A stretch of 20,000 bases of DNA from an uncultured virus (IMG/VR IMGVR_UViG_3300029288_000155) (taxonomy: Duplodnaviria > Heunggongvirae > Uroviricota > Caudoviricetes): IMG/VR virus record IMGVR_UViG_3300029288_000155. The stretch is one strand, 5' to 3'. Numbering within the stretch: the first letter of the stretch is position 1; each line of letters opens with the position of its first letter. The notes beneath the pieces are model-generated. The model ran no database searches and had not been told where the DNA came from. It worked only from the letters and a program-made list of their open reading frames with translations. Positions 4,483 through 19,360 of this stretch are shown here, piece by piece. A program made the translations under genes and the position numbers.

Positions 4483-4794
4483 ATGGAAGATATTTCTGAA
4501 TTTATATTAAAAATTAATACAGAAAACTATAGTGAATTAATTAATAATCGTATTTCTGATATATCAGAAAAATTTGATGATTTTATAGAATCTAAGAGAA
4601 TTTTCTTAGAGAAAAAAATAGAAAAAAATAGCAATCCAAAATATACAGATCCTATTAATAAAAGTAATATAACATTTTATCAATATTATAAAAATCAATT
4701 AATTAAGTTAGAGAACAATCCACAAAAATTAATAAATGAAGAAATAGAGAATTTAGAACAAATAAAACTAGAGAACACAGATAATGGCAATTGA
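4483..4794 (+). CDS. hypothetical helical protein
   Basis: 103-aa ORF with AGGGA SD; overlaps the start of the 1023-aa gene by 11 nt. Confidence 0.7.
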   Translation: MEDISEFILKINTENYSELINNRISDISEKFDDFIESKRIFLEKKIEKNSNPKYTDPINKSNITFYQYYKNQLIKLENNPQKLINEEIENLEQIKLENTDNGN

Positions 4795-7700
4795 AATTAG
4801 AACATTATTACAACTGAATGACGTAAGAGATATCCTAAATGGTGAATATATTTTAATGAATAATATAGATGCATCATGGACAAAGCTTTCTAACGTAGAG
4901 GCTTTGCCTTTATTTGAAACAAGATTATGGAATGAAGGCGAATTTTGTAGAATAGAGTCTGATGACTCTTTGTATTGGAAAGTATATGAAGCAAATGAAG
5001 ATACTATTGAAGATCCTAGAATATCTTCAAATTGGAACATTATATGGGAGATACTTAAAACAGATAATGAGGGGTGGGTTCCAATAGGAAGCAGTTTGAC
5101 AAGATTTACAGGGGAATTTGATTGTAATGAATTTATAATTAGTAAATTATATATAAATAATCCAACTATTGATTATGTTGGTTTTTTTGGGGCTACTTCA
5201 GATGCAAATATAAAAATAAGATTTATAGATTCTTATATAACGGGAAAAGATAGAGTAGGAGGGATAGTTGGAGATAATGGTCATTCAAGCGGATCTGAAA
5301 GTAATATTTATGATAGTTATTTTTTAGGTGATATTCTTGGGAATCAATATGTCGGCGGAATATGTGGAAGGAATAACAGATATGGCAGAATAAGAGAAAC
5401 TTTTTTTAAAGGAACAGTTTCCTCATCTTCTATATATGTTGGAGGGTTTGTTGGATATAATTATAACGGTGGAGAGATAGAAAATTCTTACAATATAGGA
5501 GACATTATAGCATCTTCTTCTTATAGAGGTGGTTTTTGTGGAAGGCAAAGAAACGAAACAGGGGTAGAACCTCACATTATTAATTGTTTTTCTGTTCCAA
5601 CAGGCGGAACTTCGTCCGGGGTAGCTGGTTTTTGCGAAATAAATAATGCCACAATTTTAAATTGTTTTTTTAATAATGATCTGGCTGAACTTACGATTGG
5701 GTCAGGAGGAACTTCTTTAACTTCTATTCAAATAAAGACATTAAATACTTTTACTGATGTAAATTGGGATTTTCCAAACATAATACTTTTAAATGAATGT
5801 TATGTTTTAAATCCAGAAGATGCAAATATAAATCATGTTTGGTATATTTTGTCCGAAAATTATCCTAAATTAATGTGGGAAAAAATTGAAATACCAAATT
5901 TGATTAATACAAATATTTCTGAAAACATTATACAGTGTTCAGGTTTTTTAGTTGGGGATATATCATATAAATATAGTAAAAGTATAGACCAAAATAAAAT
6001 TTTAGAGCAAAGTATAGATGAAACGGAGCAATATCCTTATGGAACAGACATTGATATTAACGTATCTATGGGAAACAATATTAAAACATACTTTGCTTCT
6101 TATGAACGGAAAGGATCCGGAGATGGAACATCAATATATAACTCATTTTTAATATCTGACTTTTGGAATATTTTTATTCCAGGTGACACTTTATTACTAG
6201 ATGATGGAATATATAAAGGAAGTGAATCTATGATTACTCCTACTAATGGAGTAAAAGGGGATGAAAATTTTCCAACAGAAATTAAAGCTGTTAATGATGG
6301 AAGTGTTTTTATTAATGGAGAAGGAGAGAATAAACCAATTTATCTAATAAATAATGATTGGTTCATTATAGAAGGAATTAACGTTTTTAATAGCAACGGA
6401 TCAGTTGTAACACTAAGTAATTCTAGTAATAATAAGTTAAAAAGAATAATAGGATGGGATGCATATGATGGAAATACAAACATTTTTGGTGTGCATTCTA
6501 ATAGTAACAATAATTTAATCGAAGATTGTGCTGGATTCGGAATTGCCAGAAAAATATTTAGCAATTCGCAAATGGGGAACTATTTAACATTAAGGAGATG
6601 TTTTGGAAGATGGGAGGGGAGTCACTATAATGGACCAAAAATGACCTTCACTATGGCATATAATAGCTATAATGCTATTTATGAAAATTGTATAGGAACA
6701 TGGGATGCTTTTAGGATGGATAAAAATTATTTATTAAAATGTTCAGATGAAAACACATACAGCAAATGTAATACCTTGTTTGAAAATTACGAAGTAGATC
6801 AGCCTTACGGAATTTTTTCACGAGATAGAAACGATGGAGATAAAGATGTAAATAGTTATCTTCTGGGATCTATAGCATATGTAAAAGATGGTCAAAAATG
6901 TGAGGGAATTCCATCTCTTATAAATATTTCTAGCTTAAATAAATTATATATTAAAAATTCAACCGCTTTTGCTTCAAATGAATTCATAGCTTTATATTTA
7001 AGTTCTTTTTTTAAGTGGGAAAAAAATAAAAGCTATACTCAAATAGGGGAAGAATCAAGTAGAGGAGTTATTCCAACTATTTATAATGGACATTATTATA
7101 TTCCACTAACAACAGGAGTTACATCTGAAACTCAACCAATTTGGCCTGAAAATGGAGGAACTGTAGAAGATGGAGAGGTAATATGGAAAGATGCTGGAGA
7201 AATAGACTTATTAATACAAAACTTTAATATTTTTGGCACAAAAAATATAAGTAATTGGAATATAGAAAATTTAATAGAGGAAGGAGATATATATGCGGAA
7301 AATGAAGCTAACATAAATTTCCAATATATTGATGGAGTACAAACAAATGTCCCATTATGGCCTTGGCCTATGGATCAAAGAATTTATGATGCAATGACAT
7401 TCGCGGGATATAGCAATATAAATGGAGAAGATAAGAGAATTATTGTAACCTACGAAATAAAGTCTATATTTTTACAAAATATTCTATCCGATATTTATGA
7501 AAATATAATAAATAATTATAATAATATTGTTTCTTATCCTTATAATAATCAAACCTACATATCTAATATAATGTTATATATGACAAATTTAACTACTTCC
7601 GATTATGATGATATTATAAATATGTTTTTATTATTTTCTCAAACTTTTTCAGAAATGCAATCTGTATTAATCGCTTATAATTATTCTGACTATAATTTAG

Positions 7701-7855
7701 TTCCATCCGTTAGAGTTATTAATAGATATTTTAAAGAAAAAATTGATACATCTTTGACTGACTTTGTAAATTCTATTTGGATAGATGAAGTTCCTTCTAA
7801 TTGGAAATATTTATGTCAATTAAGTGGAGAAGATGTTTCTGGATGGAATAGCTAA
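4784..7855 (+). CDS. large modular glycan-interacting protein: GLUG repeats, PASTA-like domain, right-handed beta-helix, carbohydrate-binding-like inserts (putative virion fibre/spike)
   Basis: GLUG-type repeats (VGGIVG, VGGICG, VGGFVG, RGGFCG). PASTA-like segment IPNLINT...GFLVGDISYKYSKSIDQNKILEQ...GTDIDINVSMG. Pectate-lyase-like start GSGDGTS...PGDTLLLDDGIY followed by Asn-rich turns. No signal peptide. Confidence 0.75.
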   Translation: MAIEIRTLLQLNDVRDILNGEYILMNNIDASWTKLSNVEALPLFETRLWNEGEFCRIESDDSLYWKVYEANEDTIEDPRISSNWNIIWEILKTDNEGWVPIGSSLTRFTGEFDCNEFIISKLYINNPTIDYVGFFGATSDANIKIRFIDSYITGKDRVGGIVGDNGHSSGSESNIYDSYFLGDILGNQYVGGICGRNNRYGRIRETFFKGTVSSSSIYVGGFVGYNYNGGEIENSYNIGDIIASSSYRGGFCGRQRNETGVEPHIINCFSVPTGGTSSGVAGFCEINNATILNCFFNNDLAELTIGSGGTSLTSIQIKTLNTFTDVNWDFPNIILLNECYVLNPEDANINHVWYILSENYPKLMWEKIEIPNLINTNISENIIQCSGFLVGDISYKYSKSIDQNKILEQSIDETEQYPYGTDIDINVSMGNNIKTYFASYERKGSGDGTSIYNSFLISDFWNIFIPGDTLLLDDGIYKGSESMITPTNGVKGDENFPTEIKAVNDGSVFINGEGENKPIYLINNDWFIIEGINVFNSNGSVVTLSNSSNNKLKRIIGWDAYDGNTNIFGVHSNSNNNLIEDCAGFGIARKIFSNSQMGNYLTLRRCFGRWEGSHYNGPKMTFTMAYNSYNAIYENCIGTWDAFRMDKNYLLKCSDENTYSKCNTLFENYEVDQPYGIFSRDRNDGDKDVNSYLLGSIAYVKDGQKCEGIPSLINISSLNKLYIKNSTAFASNEFIALYLSSFFKWEKNKSYTQIGEESSRGVIPTIYNGHYYIPLTTGVTSETQPIWPENGGTVEDGEVIWKDAGEIDLLIQNFNIFGTKNISNWNIENLIEEGDIYAENEANINFQYIDGVQTNVPLWPWPMDQRIYDAMTFAGYSNINGEDKRIIVTYEIKSIFLQNILSDIYENIINNYNNIVSYPYNNQTYISNIMLYMTNLTTSDYDDIINMFLLFSQTFSEMQSVLIAYNYSDYNLVPSVRVINRYFKEKIDTSLTDFVNSIWIDEVPSNWKYLCQLSGEDVSGWNS

Positions 7856-7915: not shown

Positions 7916-9334
7916 ATGAATTGGTATAAATTAGCACAAACTATTAATCATACATATGAAGTTAGAACAAATTATGTAGAAAGAATAGAAAATAAAATAA
8001 AATTTTTACAAAGAAAGGCAGATAGACTTGGGATTCCTAGAATGGAAATATCTGTTTCTAAACCTTTTATAAAAAACATAAATAAGTCTGAAAAGCAAAT
8101 ACAACAAGACAGTAGAATAGGAATAAAAGAAACAACAAGTCCAGTTGAATTTGTTCAAATTACAATAAGTGGAGAGCCTCCAAAGCTTCCTAATTGGCAA
8201 TTTATCGGCAGAATAGAGCATACCCCTGAGGGCAATATTGTTTCTACTTCTCCAGATTCCTCAGTTCCAGTTCCTACTGAATATAGGAATTCTGCTCCAT
8301 ATTGTGAACATTGTAACACTAATAGAGCTAGAAATGATACTTTTTTAGTATACAATACAACTACTCAAGAATTTAAACAAATTGGCAGTAGTTGTTTAAA
8401 AGATTTTTTAGGTCATAAAGATGCTAAGGAATATGCTCAAATGTGGGCAGAATGGTCATTAATAGATACTCAATTAAAAGAAATGCAAGGAAATATGGAT
8501 GACGACGATGAGTATGGCGGCGGCAGGGGAGAGCGATTTGCAAATGTCTTATCTTATCTTGCAGCAGCAGTTAAAGTAATTAAAAGATTTGGATTTTCAT
8601 CCACTACAATTAAAAGTACCGGGGAATATAATCCAGATTCTACTTTAAGTAAAGTAAATTATATTATGTTTCCTCCTAATCAAAATGAATCAGCTTATAA
8701 TGAATGGGAAAATTTTATTCAAAAAAATCAATTAAATATAGATGACTCAGACTACACAGAAGCTCAAAGTATAATTGATTGGGGTAAAAATTTATCAGAA
8801 GAAAAAGTTTCTGGAAGCAATTATTTGCAGAATTTAAAAGTTATTTTGTCTAACGATGGAGTTAATCCAAGGCATTTAGGTATTCTTGTTAGCGCTCCTG
8901 TAGCAAAAATGAAAGATGAAGAAAGAGAAATTTCTTATCAAAAAAGAGAGGAAGAAAACAAACAATCTGATTTTGTGGGAAAAGTAGGCGACAAAATATT
9001 AATGTCGGGAACTTTTGAAGGAAGTACTTCTTTTAATACTTCATTTGGGACAAGTCATGCTATTAATCTTCAAGATATAAATAAAAATAAATATACATGG
9101 TTTACACAAGACATCGGTTCTCTTATTGAATTTAATTTACAAAAAGGATCCCCTATTATCTTATTTGGAACAATTAAATCTCATGATGATAAATTTAAAG
9201 GGATTAAAAAAACTATTTTAACTAGATGCAAAATCATGTCTCCAGATGCAGATAAAATAGACCCTTCCTTTTATAAACCTGAAGAATTTATAAAACAAAA
9301 TAAAAAGAAAGCAAATCTATTAATAGGATTTTAA
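7916..9334 (+). CDS. phage-type protein with Zn-binding motif and C-terminal OB-fold-like domain
   Basis: CEHC...QIGSSCLKDFLG metal motif. C-terminal FVGKVGDKI...TWFT...GTIKSH...TILTRCK has an OB-fold pattern. N-terminus is MNWYKLAQ. Confidence 0.7.
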   Translation: MNWYKLAQTINHTYEVRTNYVERIENKIKFLQRKADRLGIPRMEISVSKPFIKNINKSEKQIQQDSRIGIKETTSPVEFVQITISGEPPKLPNWQFIGRIEHTPEGNIVSTSPDSSVPVPTEYRNSAPYCEHCNTNRARNDTFLVYNTTTQEFKQIGSSCLKDFLGHKDAKEYAQMWAEWSLIDTQLKEMQGNMDDDDEYGGGRGERFANVLSYLAAAVKVIKRFGFSSTTIKSTGEYNPDSTLSKVNYIMFPPNQNESAYNEWENFIQKNQLNIDDSDYTEAQSIIDWGKNLSEEKVSGSNYLQNLKVILSNDGVNPRHLGILVSAPVAKMKDEEREISYQKREEENKQSDFVGKVGDKILMSGTFEGSTSFNTSFGTSHAINLQDINKNKYTWFTQDIGSLIEFNLQKGSPIILFGTIKSHDDKFKGIKKTILTRCKIMSPDADKIDPSFYKPEEFIKQNKKKANLLIGF

Positions 9335-9649: not shown

Positions 9650-9946
9650 ATGAATTGGCATAAAATCGCTCAAATAAAAACAATTCCAACTATACAAATT
9701 TTAAGTTATAATTATACTACAAATATATTAAAAGTTAATTTTAACGGAGGAAAAGGATATGCATATAAAGTTACTCCAGATTTATTTTATAGAATAAAAA
9801 AACTATTAGATCATCACAATTTTTCTTTGGTTTCTAAAATATTAAAAAATAAATCCCAACAAGAAAAATTAAATAATTTAAGATTAGAAACAAAAGAAGA
9901 ACAAGATTTAATTTTAAAAGACCTAGAAGAAAGAGGGTTTTTTTAG
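9650..9946 (+). CDS. KTSC-like domain protein
   Basis: IQILSYNYTTNILKVNFNGGKGYAYKVTPDLFY fits the KTSC pattern (YD..LxVxF.G..Y.Y..V....Y); starts MNWHKIAQ. Confidence 0.6.
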   Translation: MNWHKIAQIKTIPTIQILSYNYTTNILKVNFNGGKGYAYKVTPDLFYRIKKLLDHHNFSLVSKILKNKSQQEKLNNLRLETKEEQDLILKDLEERGFF

Positions 9947-10984: not shown

Positions 10985-11890
10985 TTATAAGGAAAAACAT
11001 GTATTCAAAATTCTTTTTTCTGCTATAAGGCAGTATTTGGAAGAAATATCAGACCCAAGATATTTTCTATTATTTTTATGTGACACGATTGCTGTTGTTC
11101 CGGATCCCATAAATGGATCAAAAACGATTCCTTTTTCTGGGCACCCTGCCACAATACAAGGCTCTATTAGGTCAGGAGGATATGTTGCAAAATGAGCACC
11201 TTTAAAAGGTTTTAAAGAAACTGTCCATACAGATCTTTTATTCCTCTTCCCATTGTCTGAAAATTCTCTATTAATATCGTTTCTCATTGTTCCTTCTTGA
11301 TTCTTAGAACCAAAGACTCTTTTTGTCTTTTTTTTACTAACAGCTTCTTCTTTAATTGCATTATTGTTAAAATAATATTTTTCAGATTTTGACAATAAAA
11401 ATATATATTCATGAGCCTTTGTACACCTATCGGTAACTCCTTCTGGCATAGGATTACTTTTATGCCATATAATATCTTGTCTTAAATACCATCCATCTGT
11501 TTGTAGAGCAAAAGCAACCCTCCAAGGAATTCCAATTAAATCTTTAGTTTTTAATCCTATACCCGTTTTTTTGTAAACTCCTTCTCTTTTGTTTCCCATT
11601 CCGGCTCTTCCAGTTGAGGATCTTGAACAATTCCCGGCATAACTGTCTCCTAAATTTAACCATAAAGTTCCATCATTTTTCATTATTCTTTTAACTTCTT
11701 TAAAAACTAATGTTAATTTAGAAACATATTCTTCAACAGATTCTTCTAGCCCAATTTGTCCGGAACAATTATAGTCTCTTAGTCCATAGTAAGGAGGACT
11801 CGTGACACAGCAATTAATATAATTGTCTGGAATTAATTTCATAAATTCTAAACAATCAGCATTATAAATTTTATTAAGCTCTAAGTTCAT
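10985..11890 (-). CDS. orphan N4-cytosine/N6-adenine DNA methyltransferase, beta class
   Basis: Catalytic TSPPY near the N-terminus; SAM-binding DPFMGSGTT near the C-terminus; WYLRQDIIWHK and HFATYP motifs. Confidence 0.95.
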   Translation of the reverse strand: MNLELNKIYNADCLEFMKLIPDNYINCCVTSPPYYGLRDYNCSGQIGLEESVEEYVSKLTLVFKEVKRIMKNDGTLWLNLGDSYAGNCSRSSTGRAGMGNKREGVYKKTGIGLKTKDLIGIPWRVAFALQTDGWYLRQDIIWHKSNPMPEGVTDRCTKAHEYIFLLSKSEKYYFNNNAIKEEAVSKKKTKRVFGSKNQEGTMRNDINREFSDNGKRNKRSVWTVSLKPFKGAHFATYPPDLIEPCIVAGCPEKGIVFDPFMGSGTTAIVSHKNNRKYLGSDISSKYCLIAEKRILNTCFSL

Positions 11891-12146: not shown

Positions 12147-12716
12147 TTATATTAAAGTGTCTTTTTTTAACAATAACGTAACGTTTTTATTTTTTCCTCT
12201 TTCTATCCTCTTTATAATAAAAATATTTTTTCCTAAAATATCTATCCACCAATCTAAAGGGTGTACTGTTTTATGAAGACCCTTACTCACGTTATAATGA
12301 GCTATAGAGAAAATTTGCATATTTCCAATATTAAAAAATATATTTAAAAACGGTTTTATATGTTTTTCTTCTAAGTGTTCTAAAACATCAAAACAAAAAC
12401 TAATGTCAAAAACAGATGTATCTAAATTCCATATTGGCAAAGTTATATCTTGTTGAAAAAAAATATATTTTTTTCTATCATAATTCCCAGTGCTTATATC
12501 TATGCCGGTAATACGATATCCTTTATCAGAAAGAAAATCACATAGTTTTCCATTTCCACATCCTATGTCTAAAATATTATGTGATGTTTTAATATATTCT
12601 TCCCATAAGTCAAAAAGTATTAATCCTTGATTTTGTTTTTTATATGGAATAGAGATATCATGAATATGGTCATAAATTTCTTTATATGTTGATCTTTTGT
12701 AGTCTATATCTTTCAT
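12147..12716 (-). CDS. class I SAM-dependent methyltransferase
   Basis: ILDIGCGNG, TGIDIS, FCFDVLEHL motifs. Confidence 0.9.
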   Translation of the reverse strand: MKDIDYKRSTYKEIYDHIHDISIPYKKQNQGLILFDLWEEYIKTSHNILDIGCGNGKLCDFLSDKGYRITGIDISTGNYDRKKYIFFQQDITLPIWNLDTSVFDISFCFDVLEHLEEKHIKPFLNIFFNIGNMQIFSIAHYNVSKGLHKTVHPLDWWIDILGKNIFIIKRIERGKNKNVTLLLKKDTLI

Positions 12717-13633
12717 AAATTTAAAACATTATAAGCGTAACAAAATTCTTCTGTTATAGGAAATAAATTTTTACTTTCTGAAAAATGTTTTATTAACTTT
12801 ACCCATTTATCTACTGATATTTCCTGATATATCAAATATTTCCATACTAAAAAATTACATAACTTATATCCCAAATTAATATCAGTAGAAACATCATCTG
12901 GATACTCATAAGAAGTGTATAAAACTGGTTTATTTTGCCAAAAATATCCAGGAGCAAATTGAGCGACCTTAACTCCTCTTATTAAACAATCAACTACAAA
13001 TGTTGAATTATAAGTTAATACAAATTTACACTTGTCTAGTACTGTATGATTAACCCTTCCAATTTTACAATTATTTTCTTCAGCATAAAAACGGAATTTT
13101 TCTTCCACTTCTCCCTTATTCCAAGGATGTAATTTTAAAAATAATTTTTCTTTATAATACTTACAAGCTCCTTCCACAAACTTGTAATAATCATAAGTAG
13201 AGGATCCTCTATGAATGCTTCTATCCTCTGGGTTTTGTAAAGCTAAAACAATTCCATCCCAAGCAAAATCTGTTTTACTTTGTTGAAATTTAGTGGGTGG
13301 AAATTTTTTATTAAAAATAATTTTACTCGCTTCAATAGGAGGGGAAAAATTTTCAATCATTTGTTGAGCTTGTGGAGTATTTAAAGAACATGAAGAATAT
13401 AACCCAATTGTATCAATATGAACTGCATCCCAAAAAAATCCTGTTTCCATAACTCCCATTTTTACTTTATTTACTGGATCTCCCCAGGATAAAACATAGC
13501 TATTATTTTCATATTTTTTTTCATCTACCTTAAATTCAGGGTATTTAGAAAAATTTTTTTCTGTTATTTGCCTTATTGCTGTTAAATTATAAATATATTT
13601 AGAAATATAAATATTTTTTATTTTTTGTTTCAT
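12713..13633 (-). CDS. KpsC/KpsS-like (capsule biosynthesis family) glycosyltransferase
   Basis: METGFF, ALQNPEDRSI, FLKLHPW, VLTYNSTFVVDCLIRGVKV resemble the HP and NST..(E/D)A...G motifs of this family. Confidence 0.6.
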   Translation of the reverse strand: MKQKIKNIYISKYIYNLTAIRQITEKNFSKYPEFKVDEKKYENNSYVLSWGDPVNKVKMGVMETGFFWDAVHIDTIGLYSSCSLNTPQAQQMIENFSPPIEASKIIFNKKFPPTKFQQSKTDFAWDGIVLALQNPEDRSIHRGSSTYDYYKFVEGACKYYKEKLFLKLHPWNKGEVEEKFRFYAEENNCKIGRVNHTVLDKCKFVLTYNSTFVVDCLIRGVKVAQFAPGYFWQNKPVLYTSYEYPDDVSTDINLGYKLCNFLVWKYLIYQEISVDKWVKLIKHFSESKNLFPITEEFCYAYNVLNL

Positions 13634-14718
13634 ATTTTAAATACATTTTCCCATGATTTTATAGATGTTTCTAATCCCCATTCTTTTTCTAATTTTTCCT
13701 TAGCTTTTCCCCTCATATCTTCTTTTTCCTGGACTTCGTGTGCTATTCTGGAACACTTATATACAAACTCCCTATCGTTATTGCAAAGCCATCCTGTTTT
13801 TCCATCTTCTACTAATACTTTCCATCCTCCTCTATTATCTACAACTAAAACTGTTCCAGAAGCCATTGCTTCAAAACCTACTCTTGGTAAATTTTCAAAC
13901 GTTTCGGTTTGCATAATCAAAACATCACAAAAATTATAAAAATCCTGTTGAGTTATTCCTCCCTCTGGATAACATTTTATCCAATCTGGGGGAGAAAAAT
14001 TATTAAACTTTTTTATAGCCCTATTATCCCAACCTAAAATTAACCCTTGTTTAATACAAGGAGCGGTCATTGTTTCATATATCCAGAATTGTTCTTTCCC
14101 ATATTTGTCAGAATCTCCTCTAGAAATTCTTCCAAAGCGAAATTGATCGTTTTCTCTATTTTCTTTGTATTTAAAAAAAGATGTATCAAAATAGGGCTTA
14201 AATAAAATAGGAGTATATTTATTAAATTCTTTTAATTTTTGAGATACTTTATTAAATTGATGTTCTGTTTGATATAAATTAAAATCTATTAATCCTCTTC
14301 TTTGGCAATCTATTTCTTTTTCAAAATTCCAAGTCATACAATTTACAAAAGTGGTTGTTCTTGCATATTTTTTTATTTCTTCTAAATTATTTAAAAATTC
14401 CCCATTACAAAAAGAGATAACGTGTAATCCTTCTAATGATTCCCAATTTTTTGGAGATGGGACAATACACCCCATCTTTTCTACTTCTTCTTTTTTCTTT
14501 AAACAGTTGTTGTCAAAACCCCCAGTGTGACAAAGAGTAACAGATACCCCCATTTTTCTCCAACAAATTATTTGATGAAAAAGTTCTGTATCTGCTCCTC
14601 CTAAATTGCTTGGAAATCCAACAACTCCTATTTTTATTTCTGAGTCAGATTGATTAACCTTTTTAACTTCTTCTATTTTTTCTATAAAAGGTTTTCTATG
14701 CGGTCTTATTTGATTCAT
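13630..14718 (-). CDS. GT-B glycosyltransferase, GT4-like
   Basis: N-terminal GGADTE; ENLPRVGFEAMASG (E-x7-E motif); GG...VEDGKTGWL. Confidence 0.9.
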   Translation of the reverse strand: MNQIRPHRKPFIEKIEEVKKVNQSDSEIKIGVVGFPSNLGGADTELFHQIICWRKMGVSVTLCHTGGFDNNCLKKKEEVEKMGCIVPSPKNWESLEGLHVISFCNGEFLNNLEEIKKYARTTTFVNCMTWNFEKEIDCQRRGLIDFNLYQTEHQFNKVSQKLKEFNKYTPILFKPYFDTSFFKYKENRENDQFRFGRISRGDSDKYGKEQFWIYETMTAPCIKQGLILGWDNRAIKKFNNFSPPDWIKCYPEGGITQQDFYNFCDVLIMQTETFENLPRVGFEAMASGTVLVVDNRGGWKVLVEDGKTGWLCNNDREFVYKCSRIAHEVQEKEDMRGKAKEKLEKEWGLETSIKSWENVFKI

Positions 14719-15064
14719 CTCTCATAATCTCATTGTATCTTTCTGCAAATTTCTTATTAACACAATTATTTGTATCTTTCATAAAATCTTCTAATACTAA
14801 TTTTTTACCAGAAACAGAACAATAAAAATCTACTATTTTTTGAAGATCTTCTTCTGTAAAATACTTATCAATGATATCATATATTTCTTCAATACACTTT
14901 TCTACATTAAAATCTTTTATTTTTTCTTTTATTTCTTCTGGATTAATACTAGGAAATAAAGACATTAGCCACATTTCATTTCTAATAAAAGAATCTTCTA
15001 ATAGTTTTTGTTGTTTAGAACTTTTTAAAAAGACTTCTATTAAATATCTTTTTTTTTCTGTCAT
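14696..15064 (-). CDS. DUF2059-like protein
   Basis: KYFTEEDLQKIVDFYCSVSGKKL matches the DUF2059 signature as I recall it (F(T/S)xEEL..L..FY.SP.GKK). Confidence 0.65.
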   Translation of the reverse strand: MTEKKRYLIEVFLKSSKQQKLLEDSFIRNEMWLMSLFPSINPEEIKEKIKDFNVEKCIEEIYDIIDKYFTEEDLQKIVDFYCSVSGKKLVLEDFMKDTNNCVNKKFAERYNEIMRDESNKTA

Positions 15065-16731
15065 TTTTTTACCTTTATTTTGTAAACACTATTTTCTTTA
15101 TAAAATAAAACATTATGTTCATCACTACTTAAAATCATATCTCCATTTATTACAGGATCTTCTATAATAACCATCTTATCGTCATCATATCTATTAGAAA
15201 AAATTTCTACTTTTTCTTCTTCTGTAATATAAACTGTAATACCATTTTTTGCAACAGTAAAATTAATACCAGAATAAATAATATCGTCTATTTTTCTAAC
15301 AGAATATTCATTAAAAGACTCATTCATTTTAAAAATAAACTTAGAATATTTTCCGTTTTTATTAGCTATAATTATTAATATTTTATTTAAATATTTGGCA
15401 TCTACTATTTTATATCCTATAGCTTCTTTAATTTTAATCTGATAAGCAGTTTTACTTTGTGGAAAAATACAAGCAACACAAGAACCTAAAATATCTTGTA
15501 AAATTACTCCATCATAAAATTTAGTAGAATTTTCATTAACAGTAGTTACTTCTGTAGCTACGGGAATTATTTTATTAGGTAATTCTATATAAGTAATTTC
15601 AGATATTTTATTTTTTTGTTTAATATATACTCTTCCATCTAAATACATAATATCTTCGGCGAAAATATCACATTCTAATTCTTTTTTATTATTAAAATCA
15701 AAAAGATTTAATCTTTCATTACATATTTTAGATAAAATTATTTTATTATTTGGAGTTACAGAAAAATTAGAATAATCTTTATTTATAACATTATTATTTA
15801 CAGATATATCATTATTTTTAAGGAAACAAACATTATTTCTACAGTAACTATAAAATTTAACTATTTTATTATTATATTTAAACAAATCTGTTATCTCAAA
15901 TTTGTCGCCCCCTTTAATAATAGATTGAATATTTAATGGAGAAATTATAACAACTGTATCAGTTGGGGGAGATACCCTTTCTCCTTTTAAAAATATAGTT
16001 CTGTACCACTCTCTGTAGGTCTCTGGAATAGAATTAAATGGATAACATACCTTTGGGATAGAAACGTCAGGATGGAACGCAGGAACGTTTTTTAACATTC
16101 TTTCTTCCATTGTTTTAATCTTAGGATGAGTTCCCTTAAAAGGATGAATTCCAATAAACATTTGATAGGTAATTATCCCAAAAGAAAACCAATCTGTCAT
16201 TTCACTAAAATTTTTACTATGCCTATCTTTAATACTGTCCATAATGGCAGTAGCTGGAAAATGAGGAGTTTGATAACTATCTGTATCTATGAAATAAATT
16301 TCCTTAAAATTAAAATCTAATAATAAATTCAATTCATTTAAATCCACAATTAAAACATCTTTACTATGAATATTATTAATAGTTTTTTGAGCGTTTTTTA
16401 TTAAGTTTATCGTTGTTTCTAAAGATATTTTATTTCTATCTTTAAACGCCTTAGTAAAATATTGACACATTGAATAAGTATCTTTTAAATATTTCATACT
16501 ATATCCAACTATTTCTTTTTTATCATTAGAAATAATTTCTAAAGGAATAACAACGTTTTTATCCGTAATTTTAGATAATTCTTGTATTTTTAAAAGGGGC
16601 ATAGCCTTTTTAGGATCATGATAAATTTTATAGACAATATCATTATCTCTATAAATTTGCCCTTCTCCCCCTTGCGCAACAAAGTTATTTTTATTTAATT
16701 TTAAATCTTTTAAATTTAAAGTATTTAACAT
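15061..16731 (-). CDS. Ser/Thr protein kinase (TerY-P/YegI-like) with long beta-rich C-terminal region
   Basis: QGGEGQIY glycine loop, VYKIY lysine, VDLNELN catalytic loop, IDTDSYQ, DWFSFGII...GIHPFKG. Confidence 0.9.
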   Translation of the reverse strand: MLNTLNLKDLKLNKNNFVAQGGEGQIYRDNDIVYKIYHDPKKAMPLLKIQELSKITDKNVVIPLEIISNDKKEIVGYSMKYLKDTYSMCQYFTKAFKDRNKISLETTINLIKNAQKTINNIHSKDVLIVDLNELNLLLDFNFKEIYFIDTDSYQTPHFPATAIMDSIKDRHSKNFSEMTDWFSFGIITYQMFIGIHPFKGTHPKIKTMEERMLKNVPAFHPDVSIPKVCYPFNSIPETYREWYRTIFLKGERVSPPTDTVVIISPLNIQSIIKGGDKFEITDLFKYNNKIVKFYSYCRNNVCFLKNNDISVNNNVINKDYSNFSVTPNNKIILSKICNERLNLFDFNNKKELECDIFAEDIMYLDGRVYIKQKNKISEITYIELPNKIIPVATEVTTVNENSTKFYDGVILQDILGSCVACIFPQSKTAYQIKIKEAIGYKIVDAKYLNKILIIIANKNGKYSKFIFKMNESFNEYSVRKIDDIIYSGINFTVAKNGITVYITEEEKVEIFSNRYDDDKMVIIEDPVINGDMILSSDEHNVLFYKENSVYKIKVKK

Positions 16732-16742
16732 TTTAAATCTTT

Positions 16743-17627
16743 CTAAAAAACAATAGATGCAACAGATAAATCATCATAATGAAAAATGTTATCTTTTTGA
16801 CATTGTTTCAAATATGTATTTAATCTTCTTTTTAAAAAATTCTCATTTTTATTTTTAATATTACAAATATTATAAATTGGCTCATGAAAAGAAATAGGTT
16901 CATTTATTTTTGATGTATCTGAACTAGAAATCTTATAAAATGATTCTATTCCATCAGAAAAAAGAAAGATACTGTCAAAAAATGACAGGTCATTATGAAA
17001 AAATACCGAAAAAGAATAATTATTTCTCATTACAACTACAGAATCTAAAACTCTCCAAAGGATATCTGCCTTATGAGAATCTAAATCAATATTTTCTATA
17101 CTCTTGTCTTTATTTATTTTTTCAAAAGAAATAATATTTTCTTTAGAAACTCTACACCAAGATTTTAATCTTTCTTCTGAATTAAAATAATTCATATAAA
17201 ACGGATAATTGTTTTTATAAGAATTTTTTATAACTAATATTGTTTCATCTTTTAATTTTATAGTGATGATTCCATCTCCCAATATTTGACAATAAGTAGA
17301 ATAAGAATTAGATAAAGCAAATATAGAAGTTGCATCCAAAACTTCTTGTGATAATTCTAATTCTTCTATTGTTTTTTGAGAAGAGTCTAAACAAGATGAT
17401 ACATTTATTCTAATAAAAGGAATCAAATTTTGTTTTAAAAGATCATTTTCTATTTCATTTTTAATGCATAAGGTTAGAATTCTTGCCCCTATATCCGTAT
17501 TTAGAGAAGAAGAACATCCATCAGATAAAATAATATAAGATTTATTCTCATCTATTTTTTTAGACAAAGAATAATCTTGACATACTTCATGAGTAGAACC
17601 AATTTGAAAAAAATTATCACAATTCAT
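16743..17627 (-). CDS. PP2C-family protein phosphatase
   Basis: GSTHEVCQD, LSDGCSS, LGDG, FSDG and DDLS metal-binding motifs. Confidence 0.9.
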   Translation of the reverse strand: MNCDNFFQIGSTHEVCQDYSLSKKIDENKSYIILSDGCSSSLNTDIGARILTLCIKNEIENDLLKQNLIPFIRINVSSCLDSSQKTIEELELSQEVLDATSIFALSNSYSTYCQILGDGIITIKLKDETILVIKNSYKNNYPFYMNYFNSEERLKSWCRVSKENIISFEKINKDKSIENIDLDSHKADILWRVLDSVVVMRNNYSFSVFFHNDLSFFDSIFLFSDGIESFYKISSSDTSKINEPISFHEPIYNICNIKNKNENFLKRRLNTYLKQCQKDNIFHYDDLSVASIVF

Positions 17628-17635
17628 AATTTATA

Positions 17636-17676
17636 ATAAAAATAAGGAGAAATAGAATATTCCTCCTTATTTTTAT
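17636..17676. terminator. perfect 14-bp inverted repeat, likely intrinsic terminator/attenuator
   Basis: ATAAAAATAAGGAG(17636-17649) pairs with CTCCTTATTTTTAT(17663-17676); T-rich tail on both strands. Confidence 0.75.
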
Positions 17677-17693
17677 CCCTCATTTAAAACGTC

Positions 17694-18443
17694 TTAAAAA
17701 CTTAAATCTAATAAAGACAACGGTTTAGACATAACTCCTGTCCCTAAAGACTTTGATTGAGCAGAAATAGAATGAGAAACAAAAGCTGCTAATTTGGCTA
17801 AAGTTTTAGCATCGGCATTTTCTATTTCTTCATATTGAGTAAACCCAACATCATCTTTAAATTGAGATAAAACCTTTCCCGTATTATTATTAATCCCTAC
17901 TCCAATAAGAATAGTAACTAAAGATTCTAAAAATTCTTCTTTTATAGCAGAAGATAATTCTTGTTTAATATTATTAGAATTAAAAGATGAAGAATTATCT
18001 TTCCCATCTGTTATAATAAAAATGATCCCATTTGAAGTATAATCGTTATTTTTTAAGGATCTAGCATATTCATTGGTAGCTTGAATGGCGTTTAAAACAG
18101 AATCATATAAAGAAGTTCCGCCATTCGGATTAATGAAATTTTTATAATCAGATAAATCGCATTTTTCTAATAGTTTAAATCCATGTTTTTCTTTTAAAAA
18201 ACTATTAAATGCCAAAATTCTAACTAATAAATTATCTTTTCGTGGACTAAATTGGCAAGACTTAATAACTTCTTTAATAGATTTTTCAAGATCGTTTCTA
18301 TAACTACCAACGCTTCCACTTTCATCTATAACTAAAGTAACTAAAGTATATTCAGTTGCTCCAAGATCTTCTAACTTAGTAGCAGAAAATCCAAAAGTCC
18401 CATTAGCTAATTCAAATGTATCTAAATCATTTTTATTGTCCAT
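17694..18443 (-). CDS. von Willebrand factor A domain protein (TerY-like)
   Basis: MIDAS motif IDESGS, GGTSLYD, IITDG. Confidence 0.9.
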   Translation of the reverse strand: MDNKNDLDTFELANGTFGFSATKLEDLGATEYTLVTLVIDESGSVGSYRNDLEKSIKEVIKSCQFSPRKDNLLVRILAFNSFLKEKHGFKLLEKCDLSDYKNFINPNGGTSLYDSVLNAIQATNEYARSLKNNDYTSNGIIFIITDGKDNSSSFNSNNIKQELSSAIKEEFLESLVTILIGVGINNNTGKVLSQFKDDVGFTQYEEIENADAKTLAKLAAFVSHSISAQSKSLGTGVMSKPLSLLDLSF

Positions 18444-18458
18444 AATAAATCCTTTCTA

Positions 18459-19280
18459 TTATTGGTATTTTTTAATAATTTCTTCAGTAGTAGTTGTTTT
18501 CATTCCACGTTTACTCATATCTTCAATAAATTTCTTTTGGATAGCAGGAAAATCAACAAAAGGAGAAATAACAGGGCTAGTCGCGTCAGTAATAAGAACA
18601 AGCTTCTTAACGTAAGTATCATTCCCGAAACAGTCGGCTATTTGAAAAACTGTCTCCTTAACACAATGTGAACCAGCTTCCCCTGCAATCCAAATTTCAT
18701 CTGCTTCCATTAATACATTAATTAAAGCTGTATTAATTTGAGTAGTGGGGTCCTGTGCATCAGGTACTTCTGCTAGGATACATCCGTAATTCTCCGTGTA
18801 ACAATTGCTCCCCTTGGATACATAATCAATATTTCTAGAGCGTAGTCTTTCCCATTTTAACATAGAATCATAAAGGACTTTAAATATTTGATACCCCTCG
18901 CTAGCAATTAGGCAATGGGTCGGCCAAACACAAAGGGCAAATTTCCCATTTTTTTCTAATGTTTCTGTGTATTGTTGCATTCGTAGAGTTAATTTAGGAT
19001 TAAATGGACGCCAAACCCCGTCCATTACATCTTTATTGGAAATAATGGTAAATGGAGCAGGATTATTTCCATTTTTATCAATCCACCAAGCGGGATGAAA
19101 AACAGACATAAAATGATGGGAATCTAAAGTAGCATGAATTTGACTAATTTTTTCTCCAACCTTGTCAATCATATTAGCAAGTCTTTCCATATCTTTATCT
19201 GCTCCTGGAACAGATAAAGCTCCATCCGGTTTACAAAAGTCGTTTTGTCCGTCTACAATGAGTAAGTGAATATTTTTCAT
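18459..19280 (-). CDS. nicotinamidase/isochorismatase-family cysteine hydrolase
   Basis: IVDGQNDFC..GALSVPGA, LDSH, WPTHC, SKG, AGEAGSHC (Asp-Lys-Cys triad plus metal ligands). Confidence 0.9.
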   Translation of the reverse strand: MKNIHLLIVDGQNDFCKPDGALSVPGADKDMERLANMIDKVGEKISQIHATLDSHHFMSVFHPAWWIDKNGNNPAPFTIISNKDVMDGVWRPFNPKLTLRMQQYTETLEKNGKFALCVWPTHCLIASEGYQIFKVLYDSMLKWERLRSRNIDYVSKGSNCYTENYGCILAEVPDAQDPTTQINTALINVLMEADEIWIAGEAGSHCVKETVFQIADCFGNDTYVKKLVLITDATSPVISPFVDFPAIQKKFIEDMSKRGMKTTTTEEIIKKYQ

Positions 19281-19331: not shown

Positions 19332-19360
19332 ATACTATCAGTTTTCTATTTCCTTGTCAA
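19332..19360 (-). promoter_or_regulatory. sigma70-like promoter for the hydrolase-vWA-PP2C-kinase operon
   Basis: TTGACA(19360-19355)-N17-TAGTAT(19337-19332) with TGn extension; overlaps the end of the upstream gene. Confidence 0.65.

Follow-up and report, generated by a model that had tools for sequence, protein, structure and literature searches.

The 20,000-nucleotide stretch of uncultured viral DNA analysed here (IMG/VR record IMGVR_UViG_3300029288_000155; hereafter the window) carries four co-oriented, intact genes on its minus strand at 15061..19280, which encode, in order of transcription, a nicotinamidase-type cysteine hydrolase, a von Willebrand factor A (vWA) protein, a PP2C phosphatase and a Ser/Thr kinase. 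The four open reading frames (ORFs) lie where a prediction made earlier from the sequence alone (the original prediction) had placed them, and the catalytic motifs that it had called intact are fixed or nearly so in family alignments of 106-136 sequences. Profile comparisons, given below for each protein, bear out its assignment of the vWA, PP2C and kinase genes to a triad of the TerY-P or Escherichia coli YegL-PphC-YegI type. We refer to the four genes as the cassette.

The hydrolase (18459..19280, minus strand, 273 aa) was assigned to the nicotinamidase (PncA) type by profile, fold and motif evidence. In sequence it matches yeast Pnc1 best (E 3e-12), and it hits the NCBIfam nicotinamidase profile PRK11609 with E 7e-12 and 45.5 bits, under the curated equivalog cut-off of 174. 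A Foldseek search with its structural model (pLDDT 97.2, from the predicted local distance difference test) returned only Pnc1 and PncA structures in the first 13 rows, with other cysteine hydrolases ranked lower, so that sequence and fold both uphold the predicted nicotinamidase-like identity. The catalytic triad D10/K156/C206, aligned to yeast Pnc1, is present in 106/106 aligned family sequences, as are D53, H55 and H122, which align with the DWH and WPxHC motifs of Pnc1 and which we take to be the Asp/His/His metal site of nicotinamidase. Approximately 25 additional residues are found in the lid region relative to yeast Pnc1, and position 201 is Glu or Gln in 105/106 of the hydrolases but Val or Ile in solved PncAs. 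The score under the cut-off, the extra lid residues and Glu/Gln201 together define a divergent, longer PncA subfamily, and because of the last two features the substrate could differ from nicotinamide. Judged by its fold and by the adjacency of pncB, the protein very probably deamidates nicotinamide. In the wider search, 2096/2571 hydrolase candidate proteins passed E 0.001. The hydrolases of three metagenome-assembled genomes (MAGs) of the candidate phyla radiation and of two metagenome contigs (L107, L138, L150, L198, L224) share an additional, conserved N-terminal region of ~250 aa; Pfam gave no match for the three scanned, and the region could represent an upstream gene that is fused to the hydrolase or read through into it.

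The TerY/YegL-like vWA protein (17694..18443, minus strand, 249 aa) scores at or over the Pfam VWA cut-off and has a full metal ion-dependent adhesion site (MIDAS) motif, with D40, S44, T110 and D146 in 136/136 family sequences and Ser or Thr at position 42 likewise in 136/136. Its Ser-rich C-terminal tail (S223, S225, S227, S230, T235, S239) contains six Ser/Thr positions conserved at 93-100%. The profile match to E. coli YegL is weak (60%, E 8.5e-5), and the first part of the Ser-rich tail aligns with the YegL tail. The PphC(YegK)-like phosphatase (16743..17627, minus strand, 294 aa) is at or over the Pfam PP2C_2 cut-off (PF13672, E 1.3e-11) and reaches 93.5% against E. coli PphC by hhalign; its motif residues D18, D36-G37 and D225-G226 occur in 129/129 family sequences and D285-D286 in 128/129. 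Pairwise BLAST is weak for both proteins (vWA-YegL, E 5e-4; PP2C-PphC, E 0.076), the link to the E. coli proteins coming from profiles alone. Passages of 10.1101/303594 describe dephosphorylation of YegI by PphC.

Profile and model identify the fourth protein (15061..16731, minus strand, 556 aa) as a YegI-like Ser/Thr kinase with an all-beta C-terminal domain. The kinase part, approximately residues 1-265, is at or over the Pfam Pkinase cut-off, and hhalign gives 97.9% (E 5e-13) against E. coli YegI. Within the family, K35 is found in 125/127 sequences, D130 and D149 in 127/127 and N135 in 126/127. The DFG motif is replaced by D149-T-D151-S152, with S152 in 123/127; according to passages of 10.1101/819920, YegI activity requires the DSD motif and the following serine. 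A wide fold search, for which the kinase domain alone was used, matched the model (pLDDT 95.6) to Hanks kinases (Z up to 19.5, root-mean-square deviation 3.4, 246 aligned). The C-terminal part matches propellers (template modelling score 0.66-0.70) and kinase-WD40/propeller chains, and residues 278-554 are modelled as 28 strands with pLDDT above 90. From this strand count, the C-terminal half is most likely a seven-bladed beta-propeller in the model. Judged by the model, in which no helix follows residue 248, a membrane kinase like YegI was set aside.

The gaps along hydrolase, vWA, PP2C and kinase genes measure 15, 66 and 11 nt. A candidate sigma-70-type promoter with an extended -10 element (TTGACA-17-TAGTAT with TG; 19332..19360, minus strand) lies 52 nt before the hydrolase start and matches 10 of 12 consensus positions, although 36 such sites occur in the window against 37.1 expected by chance; it gains weight from a similar -35/-10 pair found by eye at this place in 5/9 close relatives. 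The candidate lies in the 3' end of a gene for a 208-aa phage protein (19338-19964, minus strand; phrog_4657, E 2e-52). A hairpin of 20 bp with a U-rich 3' arm, terminator- or stabiliser-like, separates vWA and PP2C (17635..17677, minus strand). The 81-nt vWA-PP2C junction folds with -21.8 kcal/mol (z -4.7, 0/200 shuffles equally stable); the hairpin is absent from the list of the consensus scan, and an Rfam scan of the window gave 0 matches. The predicted unit behind one promoter is therefore qualified in three ways: the number of such promoter sites equals chance, the hairpin lies inside the unit and the 3' end is open. By our own detector, uncorrected for kinship, a strong hairpin follows vWA in 55/108 junctions (30 with a U-tract), compared with 15/104 after the hydrolase, 15/106 after PP2C, 12/81 after the kinase and 96/1022 (41 with a U-tract) after other genes. 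A shuffle-based count (z below -3) gave 47/116 after vWA versus 4/110 after PP2C. With a hairpin at this position the cassette is probably not expressed evenly, and the hairpin suggests a higher output of hydrolase and vWA than of the other two proteins.

Conservation and genomic context of the cassette

To follow the four genes across genomes, hydrolase loci were fetched from three collections (the best 80 from each, of 139, >539 and >527, plus 2 and 4 more). Partners were counted where a locus extends 4.5 kb or more to each side; neither these counts nor the kinase-anchored ones are dereplicated, and since the ORF caller begins every ORF at the first start codon behind a stop, some lengths are inflated and a PP2C gene could go undetected in individual loci. 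All three partners lie beside the hydrolase in 61/72 viral, 25/53 genome and 9/11 metagenome loci, and 53/72 viral loci keep the gene order of the window. In the reciprocal scan, 51/53 viral kinase loci that extend 9 kb or more upstream have a hydrolase near the kinase, and three near-complete viruses that lack a kinase within 8 kb carry one elsewhere in the genome. After dereplication there are 118 distinct triad-linked hydrolases; the pairs are adjacent in 94/116 (hydrolase-vWA), 66/108 (vWA-PP2C) and 66/98 (PP2C-kinase) loci. The neighbourhoods in viruses and bacteria therefore show the four genes staying together, and the outcome that would have counted against the original prediction, a hydrolase not conserved next to the triad in homologous loci, did not arise.

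FastTree distances of the four genes correlate over 96 loci (rho 0.55-0.81), a descriptive measure because related loci share history, with vWA and kinase agreeing best (rho 0.81). In the 23 loci that also contain PncB, hydrolase distances follow those of vWA (rho 0.73) and kinase (0.70) more closely than those of PncB (0.41), again descriptively. Paired mutual information over 96 loci gave z 8.6 for hydrolase-vWA, 8.7 for hydrolase-PP2C and 5.5 for vWA-PP2C versus 5.8-6.5 for shuffled pairs; because the gene pairs are not separated, we give this result no weight.

Carriers in GenBank include huge phages of 462-595 kb. Cellular carriers include MAGs of Patescibacteria, Armatimonadota, Acidobacteria and Rhodoferax, and a Variovorax megaplasmid (L311, NZ_LR594667.1, 612000-646000) on which hydrolase plus vWA and PP2C plus kinase plus pncB stand 20 kb apart. 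A virus-specific module is ruled out by this megaplasmid and by the 25 cellular loci that hold all partners. The split Variovorax cassette, from a cultured soil strain, has genes for NAD (nicotinamide adenine dinucleotide) kinase, an NrtR-like Nudix protein, a macro domain and pncB close by. Related hydrolases are present on four Vibrio replicons of 0.88-0.94 Mb, an additional vWA copy lies 2-10 kb 3' of the kinase in L013/L024, L085 and L248, and one locus (L056) has two hydrolase genes.

The commonest neighbours over 247 loci are PncB (60), NrtR/Nudix (59), NadE (27), metallophosphoesterase (21) and NadD-like (14) genes, and in many phages NAD enzymes are repeatedly interleaved among the four cassette genes. 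The link to NAD proposed originally is thus recovered among the neighbours, and the context of the cassette is NAD salvage. Of 60 neighbour clusters, the 27 typed by Pfam comprise NAD, ADP-ribose, RNA-repair and ligase families, with no Ter, restriction or DNA-processing family among these 27; genes for RtcB, Tpt1, NADAR and PARP recur near the cassette. All six typed neighbouring phosphoribosyltransferases are of the nicotinate type, the type that an upstream deamidase calls for, and on this ground a nicotinamide phosphoribosyltransferase route was rejected.

Among the 24 carrier virus records that are at least 90% complete, a PncB-family match is present in 18, NadE in 18, a nucleotidyltransferase in 17, and PncB and NadE together in 16. 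A single PncB query matched 14/50,697 phage records, two of these belonging to the four records that have the hydrolase. Up to 4 kb upstream, 10/23 cellular but 1/54 viral loci have a strong NrtR/Nudix match. Some triad-less genomes, e.g., L089, L093, L139, L142 and L155, have pncB directly behind the hydrolase. In two triad-less genomes (G006 and G008) the hydrolase is the sole PncA-family match, with pncB directly 3' in one of them, and three further triad-less genomes hold additional weak PncA-family matches.

Origin of the window and its other genes

The phage-like character given to the contig in the original prediction is supported, though short of proof. The window is AT-rich (21-33% GC) with many short ORFs of no known family and with PHROG matches, and one of its proteins, of 472 aa, is found in 193 phage records; against this, the 21 window proteins scanned gave no capsid or large terminase match and no convincing tail gene. 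Locus L007 holds the nearest classified relatives for three of the four cassette genes; its virus record, G001, is 461 kb long, has terminal repeats and is rated complete by IMG/VR. It keeps the gene order of the window through the DUF2059 gene described below, shares 10 DNA pieces across the window, and carries genes for NadE, PncB and a NadD-like protein no more than ~25 kb from its cassette. Three Pfam hallmark scans (Terminase_6N, sheath, Gp23) were blank in G001; over carrier or related virus records they matched 0/5, 1/8 and 1/8, respectively, sheath and Gp23 only in G040. The window is likely to come from a phage, probably a giant one, with a megaplasmid-like element as the main alternative. 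With a possible source run set aside, four studies (three of landfill, one of groundwater) share 0.28-0.45 of the window's sampled words.

Downstream of the kinase, a DUF2059 gene identified by Pfam (14696..15064, minus strand) overlaps the kinase stop by 4 nt and is followed by more overlapping genes. Given this overlap, the transcript may continue into glycosyltransferase and methyltransferase genes. The neighbour cluster of this DUF2059 gene has 13 loci including the window, and the gene lies 3' of the kinase in 5/53 kinase-anchored viral loci; it is restricted to the window's own clade and is not a core cassette member. The overlapping minus-strand run (14696-12147) encodes in order the DUF2059 protein, a GT4 glycosyltransferase, a 306-aa protein with no assigned family and an S-adenosylmethionine-dependent methyltransferase. 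Locus L174 has the order of the window through the glycosyltransferase, at 65% identity, and two viral contigs, both incomplete, with a glycosyltransferase 62% identical gave no hydrolase match (0/2).

On the plus strand, the protein encoded at 4784-7855 (1023 aa) has GLUG repeats and matches PASTA weakly; its C-terminal end matches a short ORF of G001, behind which there too lies an ORF starting MNWY. Two window ORFs, 7916-9334 and 9650-9946, begin MNWYKLAQ and MNWHKIAQ, and at least seven ORFs in G001 have a similar MNWYK start, an N-terminal tag common to both. The window genes 7916-9334 and 12713-13633 were not found in five and four related virus records, respectively. An N4/N6 DNA methyltransferase (10985-11890, minus strand; PADLOC MTase_II, E 7e-109) has no recognised restriction partner beside it.

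A proposed switch on nicotinamide deamidation

Nicotinamidase would act as the entry enzyme of deamidating NAD salvage, in which nicotinamide is converted to nicotinate for use by PncB, NadD and NadE in turn. We propose that the cassette puts such an enzyme under reversible phosphorylation by a TerY-P-type triad of its own. Hydrolase and vWA may be produced in surplus and act together as a pair, the hairpin holding phosphatase and kinase at catalytic levels, a view towards which we lean. The kinase would read some signal through its propeller and phosphorylate the Ser-rich vWA tail and/or S155 of the hydrolase, PP2C would reverse this, and phosphorylation would switch the flux of nicotinamide into NAD. 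The whole chain, with kinase and phosphatase gating the nicotinamidase through vWA, falls a little short of an even chance in our estimate. In a large phage the switch may time or sustain the rebuilding of NAD during infection. In its fullest form the proposal has large phages carrying a deamidating NAD route (PncA-PncB-NadD-NadE) whose entry enzyme is switched by the kinase-propeller, PP2C and vWA in response to host NAD-cleaving defence, with the same device serving NrtR-controlled bacteria; put so completely, it is tentative and rather doubtful. The original prediction had nicotinamide status driving the kinase, but the anatomy of the cassette fits the opposite direction, a kinase acting on the hydrolase-vWA pair, somewhat better, and no result here shows the counter-defence, superinfection exclusion or host takeover that it had envisaged.

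In favour of this gating count the conserved linkage of the four genes, the closer agreement of hydrolase distances with vWA and kinase than with PncB, the hydrolase-vWA adjacency together with the Variovorax split into hydrolase plus vWA and PP2C plus kinase plus pncB, the NAD-salvage neighbours, the hairpin after vWA and the D-x-D-S motif of the kinase. The candidate phosphosite S155 adjoins the catalytic K156. Ser or Thr occupies this position in 110/118 triad-linked versus 8/21 stand-alone hydrolases, the latter set being 30 loci minus four viral fragments, four metagenome loci and one genome with a kinase elsewhere. On the tree there are three independent pairs for an association, none against and three uninformative (p 0.25), and because of this test the S155 pattern is a lead only. 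Several observations weigh against a phosphorylation-switched nicotinamidase, among them the tree test, the fact that columns other than 155 separate triad-linked from stand-alone hydrolases more strongly by consensus residue, and the longer lid and Glu/Gln201 of the hydrolase. The hydrolase can also stand alone: it has no partner beside it in 2 viral, 21/53 genome and 2 metagenome loci, and 21/22 cellular genomes with a stand-alone hydrolase, many of them incomplete, have no strong kinase match genome-wide. Four of the 24 near-complete carriers (G039, G040, G050, G058) have no PncB or NadE match, and the window itself has no NAD-synthesis gene or NrtR among its 21 scanned proteins. By the same detector as above, about half of the loci lack a hairpin after vWA, and the Variovorax vWA gene has no clear one.

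The reverse order of events would make the hydrolase a sensor: nicotinamide from NAD-cleaving defences would alter the hydrolase-vWA pair and so lift the phosphatase's hold on a toxic or host-modifying kinase, for defence in cells and for superinfection exclusion or host takeover in phages. TerY-P-like modules have been reported as stand-alone anti-phage systems in passages of PMC11090510, citing Gao 2020, and the kinase weakly matches the defence kinases MAD6 and PD-T4-6 in PADLOC (E 3e-7 to 9e-3), whereas hydrolase, vWA and PP2C have no PADLOC match. Low expression behind a hairpin would suit a toxic effector too, and the retention of the cassette by the four near-complete viruses that lack PncB and NadE, together with the close agreement of the vWA and kinase trees, is consistent with a sensor. 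No restriction system is found among the 27 Pfam-typed neighbour clusters, and the NAD enzymes interleaved between the four genes and the NrtR/Nudix matches upstream of cellular loci also argue against this order of events, which we regard as unlikely.

It is quite improbable that the hydrolase acts on another amide, be it an analogue of nicotinamide, an adduct derived from NAD or a group bound to a protein, in a repair or quality-control unit sharing only its regulation with NAD salvage. The score far below the equivalog cut-off, the residue at position 201, the extended lid and the recurrent RtcB, Tpt1, NADAR and PARP genes would fit such a role; nicotinamidases nevertheless outrank other cysteine hydrolases in sequence and fold, the metal-site residues are fixed, and pncB follows the hydrolase directly in several triad-less genomes. 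Nor do we give much credence to co-regulation without mutual action, in which a PncA of the ordinary kind and a kinase switch independent of it would share a promoter and travel together. Stand-alone hydrolases that arise in at least eight state changes on the hydrolase tree, a cassette that can stretch over >10 kb, and lower tree correlations between hydrolase and partners (rho 0.55-0.64) than among partners (0.64-0.81) point in that direction. Yet the kinase almost never occurs without the hydrolase, also in phages, where NrtR is rare (4/54), and hydrolase-vWA is the most stable junction.

Comparison with known triads and NAD pathways

The E. coli YegL-PphC(YegK)-YegI triad has the same vWA-PP2C-kinase order and the D-x-D-S motif, according to passages of 10.1101/819920 and 10.1101/303594, but no neighbouring hydrolase gene, and YegI is described in 10.1101/819920 as a two-pass membrane protein, whereas the kinase of the window is modelled with an all-beta propeller at its end. 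In the portions of PMC11090510 and PMC4978471 that treat the TerY-P triad, a TerY-like vWA protein, PP2C and a Ser/Thr kinase are encoded together, as here. The TerY-P kinase ends in a zinc ribbon and its anti-phage form in an OB-fold (oligonucleotide/oligosaccharide-binding fold; passages of PMC11090510), in place of a propeller. The partners named in such passages are Ter, restriction and type VII secretion genes, while those of the cassette are NAD-salvage genes and an almost obligatory fourth gene.

On the metabolic side, the NrtR operon nrtR-pncA-pncB-nadD-nadE of Clostridium acetobutylicum (PMC2330246, main text) combines PncA with PncB, NadD, NadE and NrtR, like the neighbours of the cassette, and this main text contains no vWA, Willebrand or phosphatase. 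Unlike in NrtR-controlled operons, NrtR is rare at viral cassette loci and was not found among the scanned window proteins. Phage NARP1-3, in the passages of 10.1101/2024.02.11.579819 and PMC13464706, are virus-encoded routes that can restore NAD from one of its precursors or breakdown products, as proposed here; as described there they lack nicotinamide deamidation, and their enzyme pairs (Adps+Namat, Nampt+Nmnat, PnuC+NadR) are all absent from the cassette. Preiss-Handler clusters of pncB-nadD-nadE in jumbo phages have already been reported bioinformatically in PMC11662467. The main texts of PMC13464706 and PMC11662467 mention no vWA, in contrast to the cassette. In the portions of the literature searched, passages of PMC9503650 and PMC7824862 among them, the four-gene unit is apparently undescribed, although the founding TerY-P survey (Anantharaman 2012), Gao 2020 or supplements could list it.

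As a variant TerY-P-type triad, linked with a nicotinamidase and with NAD salvage, the cassette is real and widespread in large phages and bacteria. The passages on TerY-P-type triads name no physiological substrate besides the kinase itself, and the phage NAD-rebuilding routes described in the cited passages consist of paired enzymes or transporters and include no kinase. The cassette links the triad to one simply assayed enzyme, with named candidate phosphosites (the vWA tail and S155) and an expression step at the hairpin. Two questions thereby become directly accessible to experiment: which proteins such triads phosphorylate, and whether phages control the recovery of NAD as well as supplying it. 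If true, a switched deamidating route would provide a defined metabolic target for triads of the TerY-P type.

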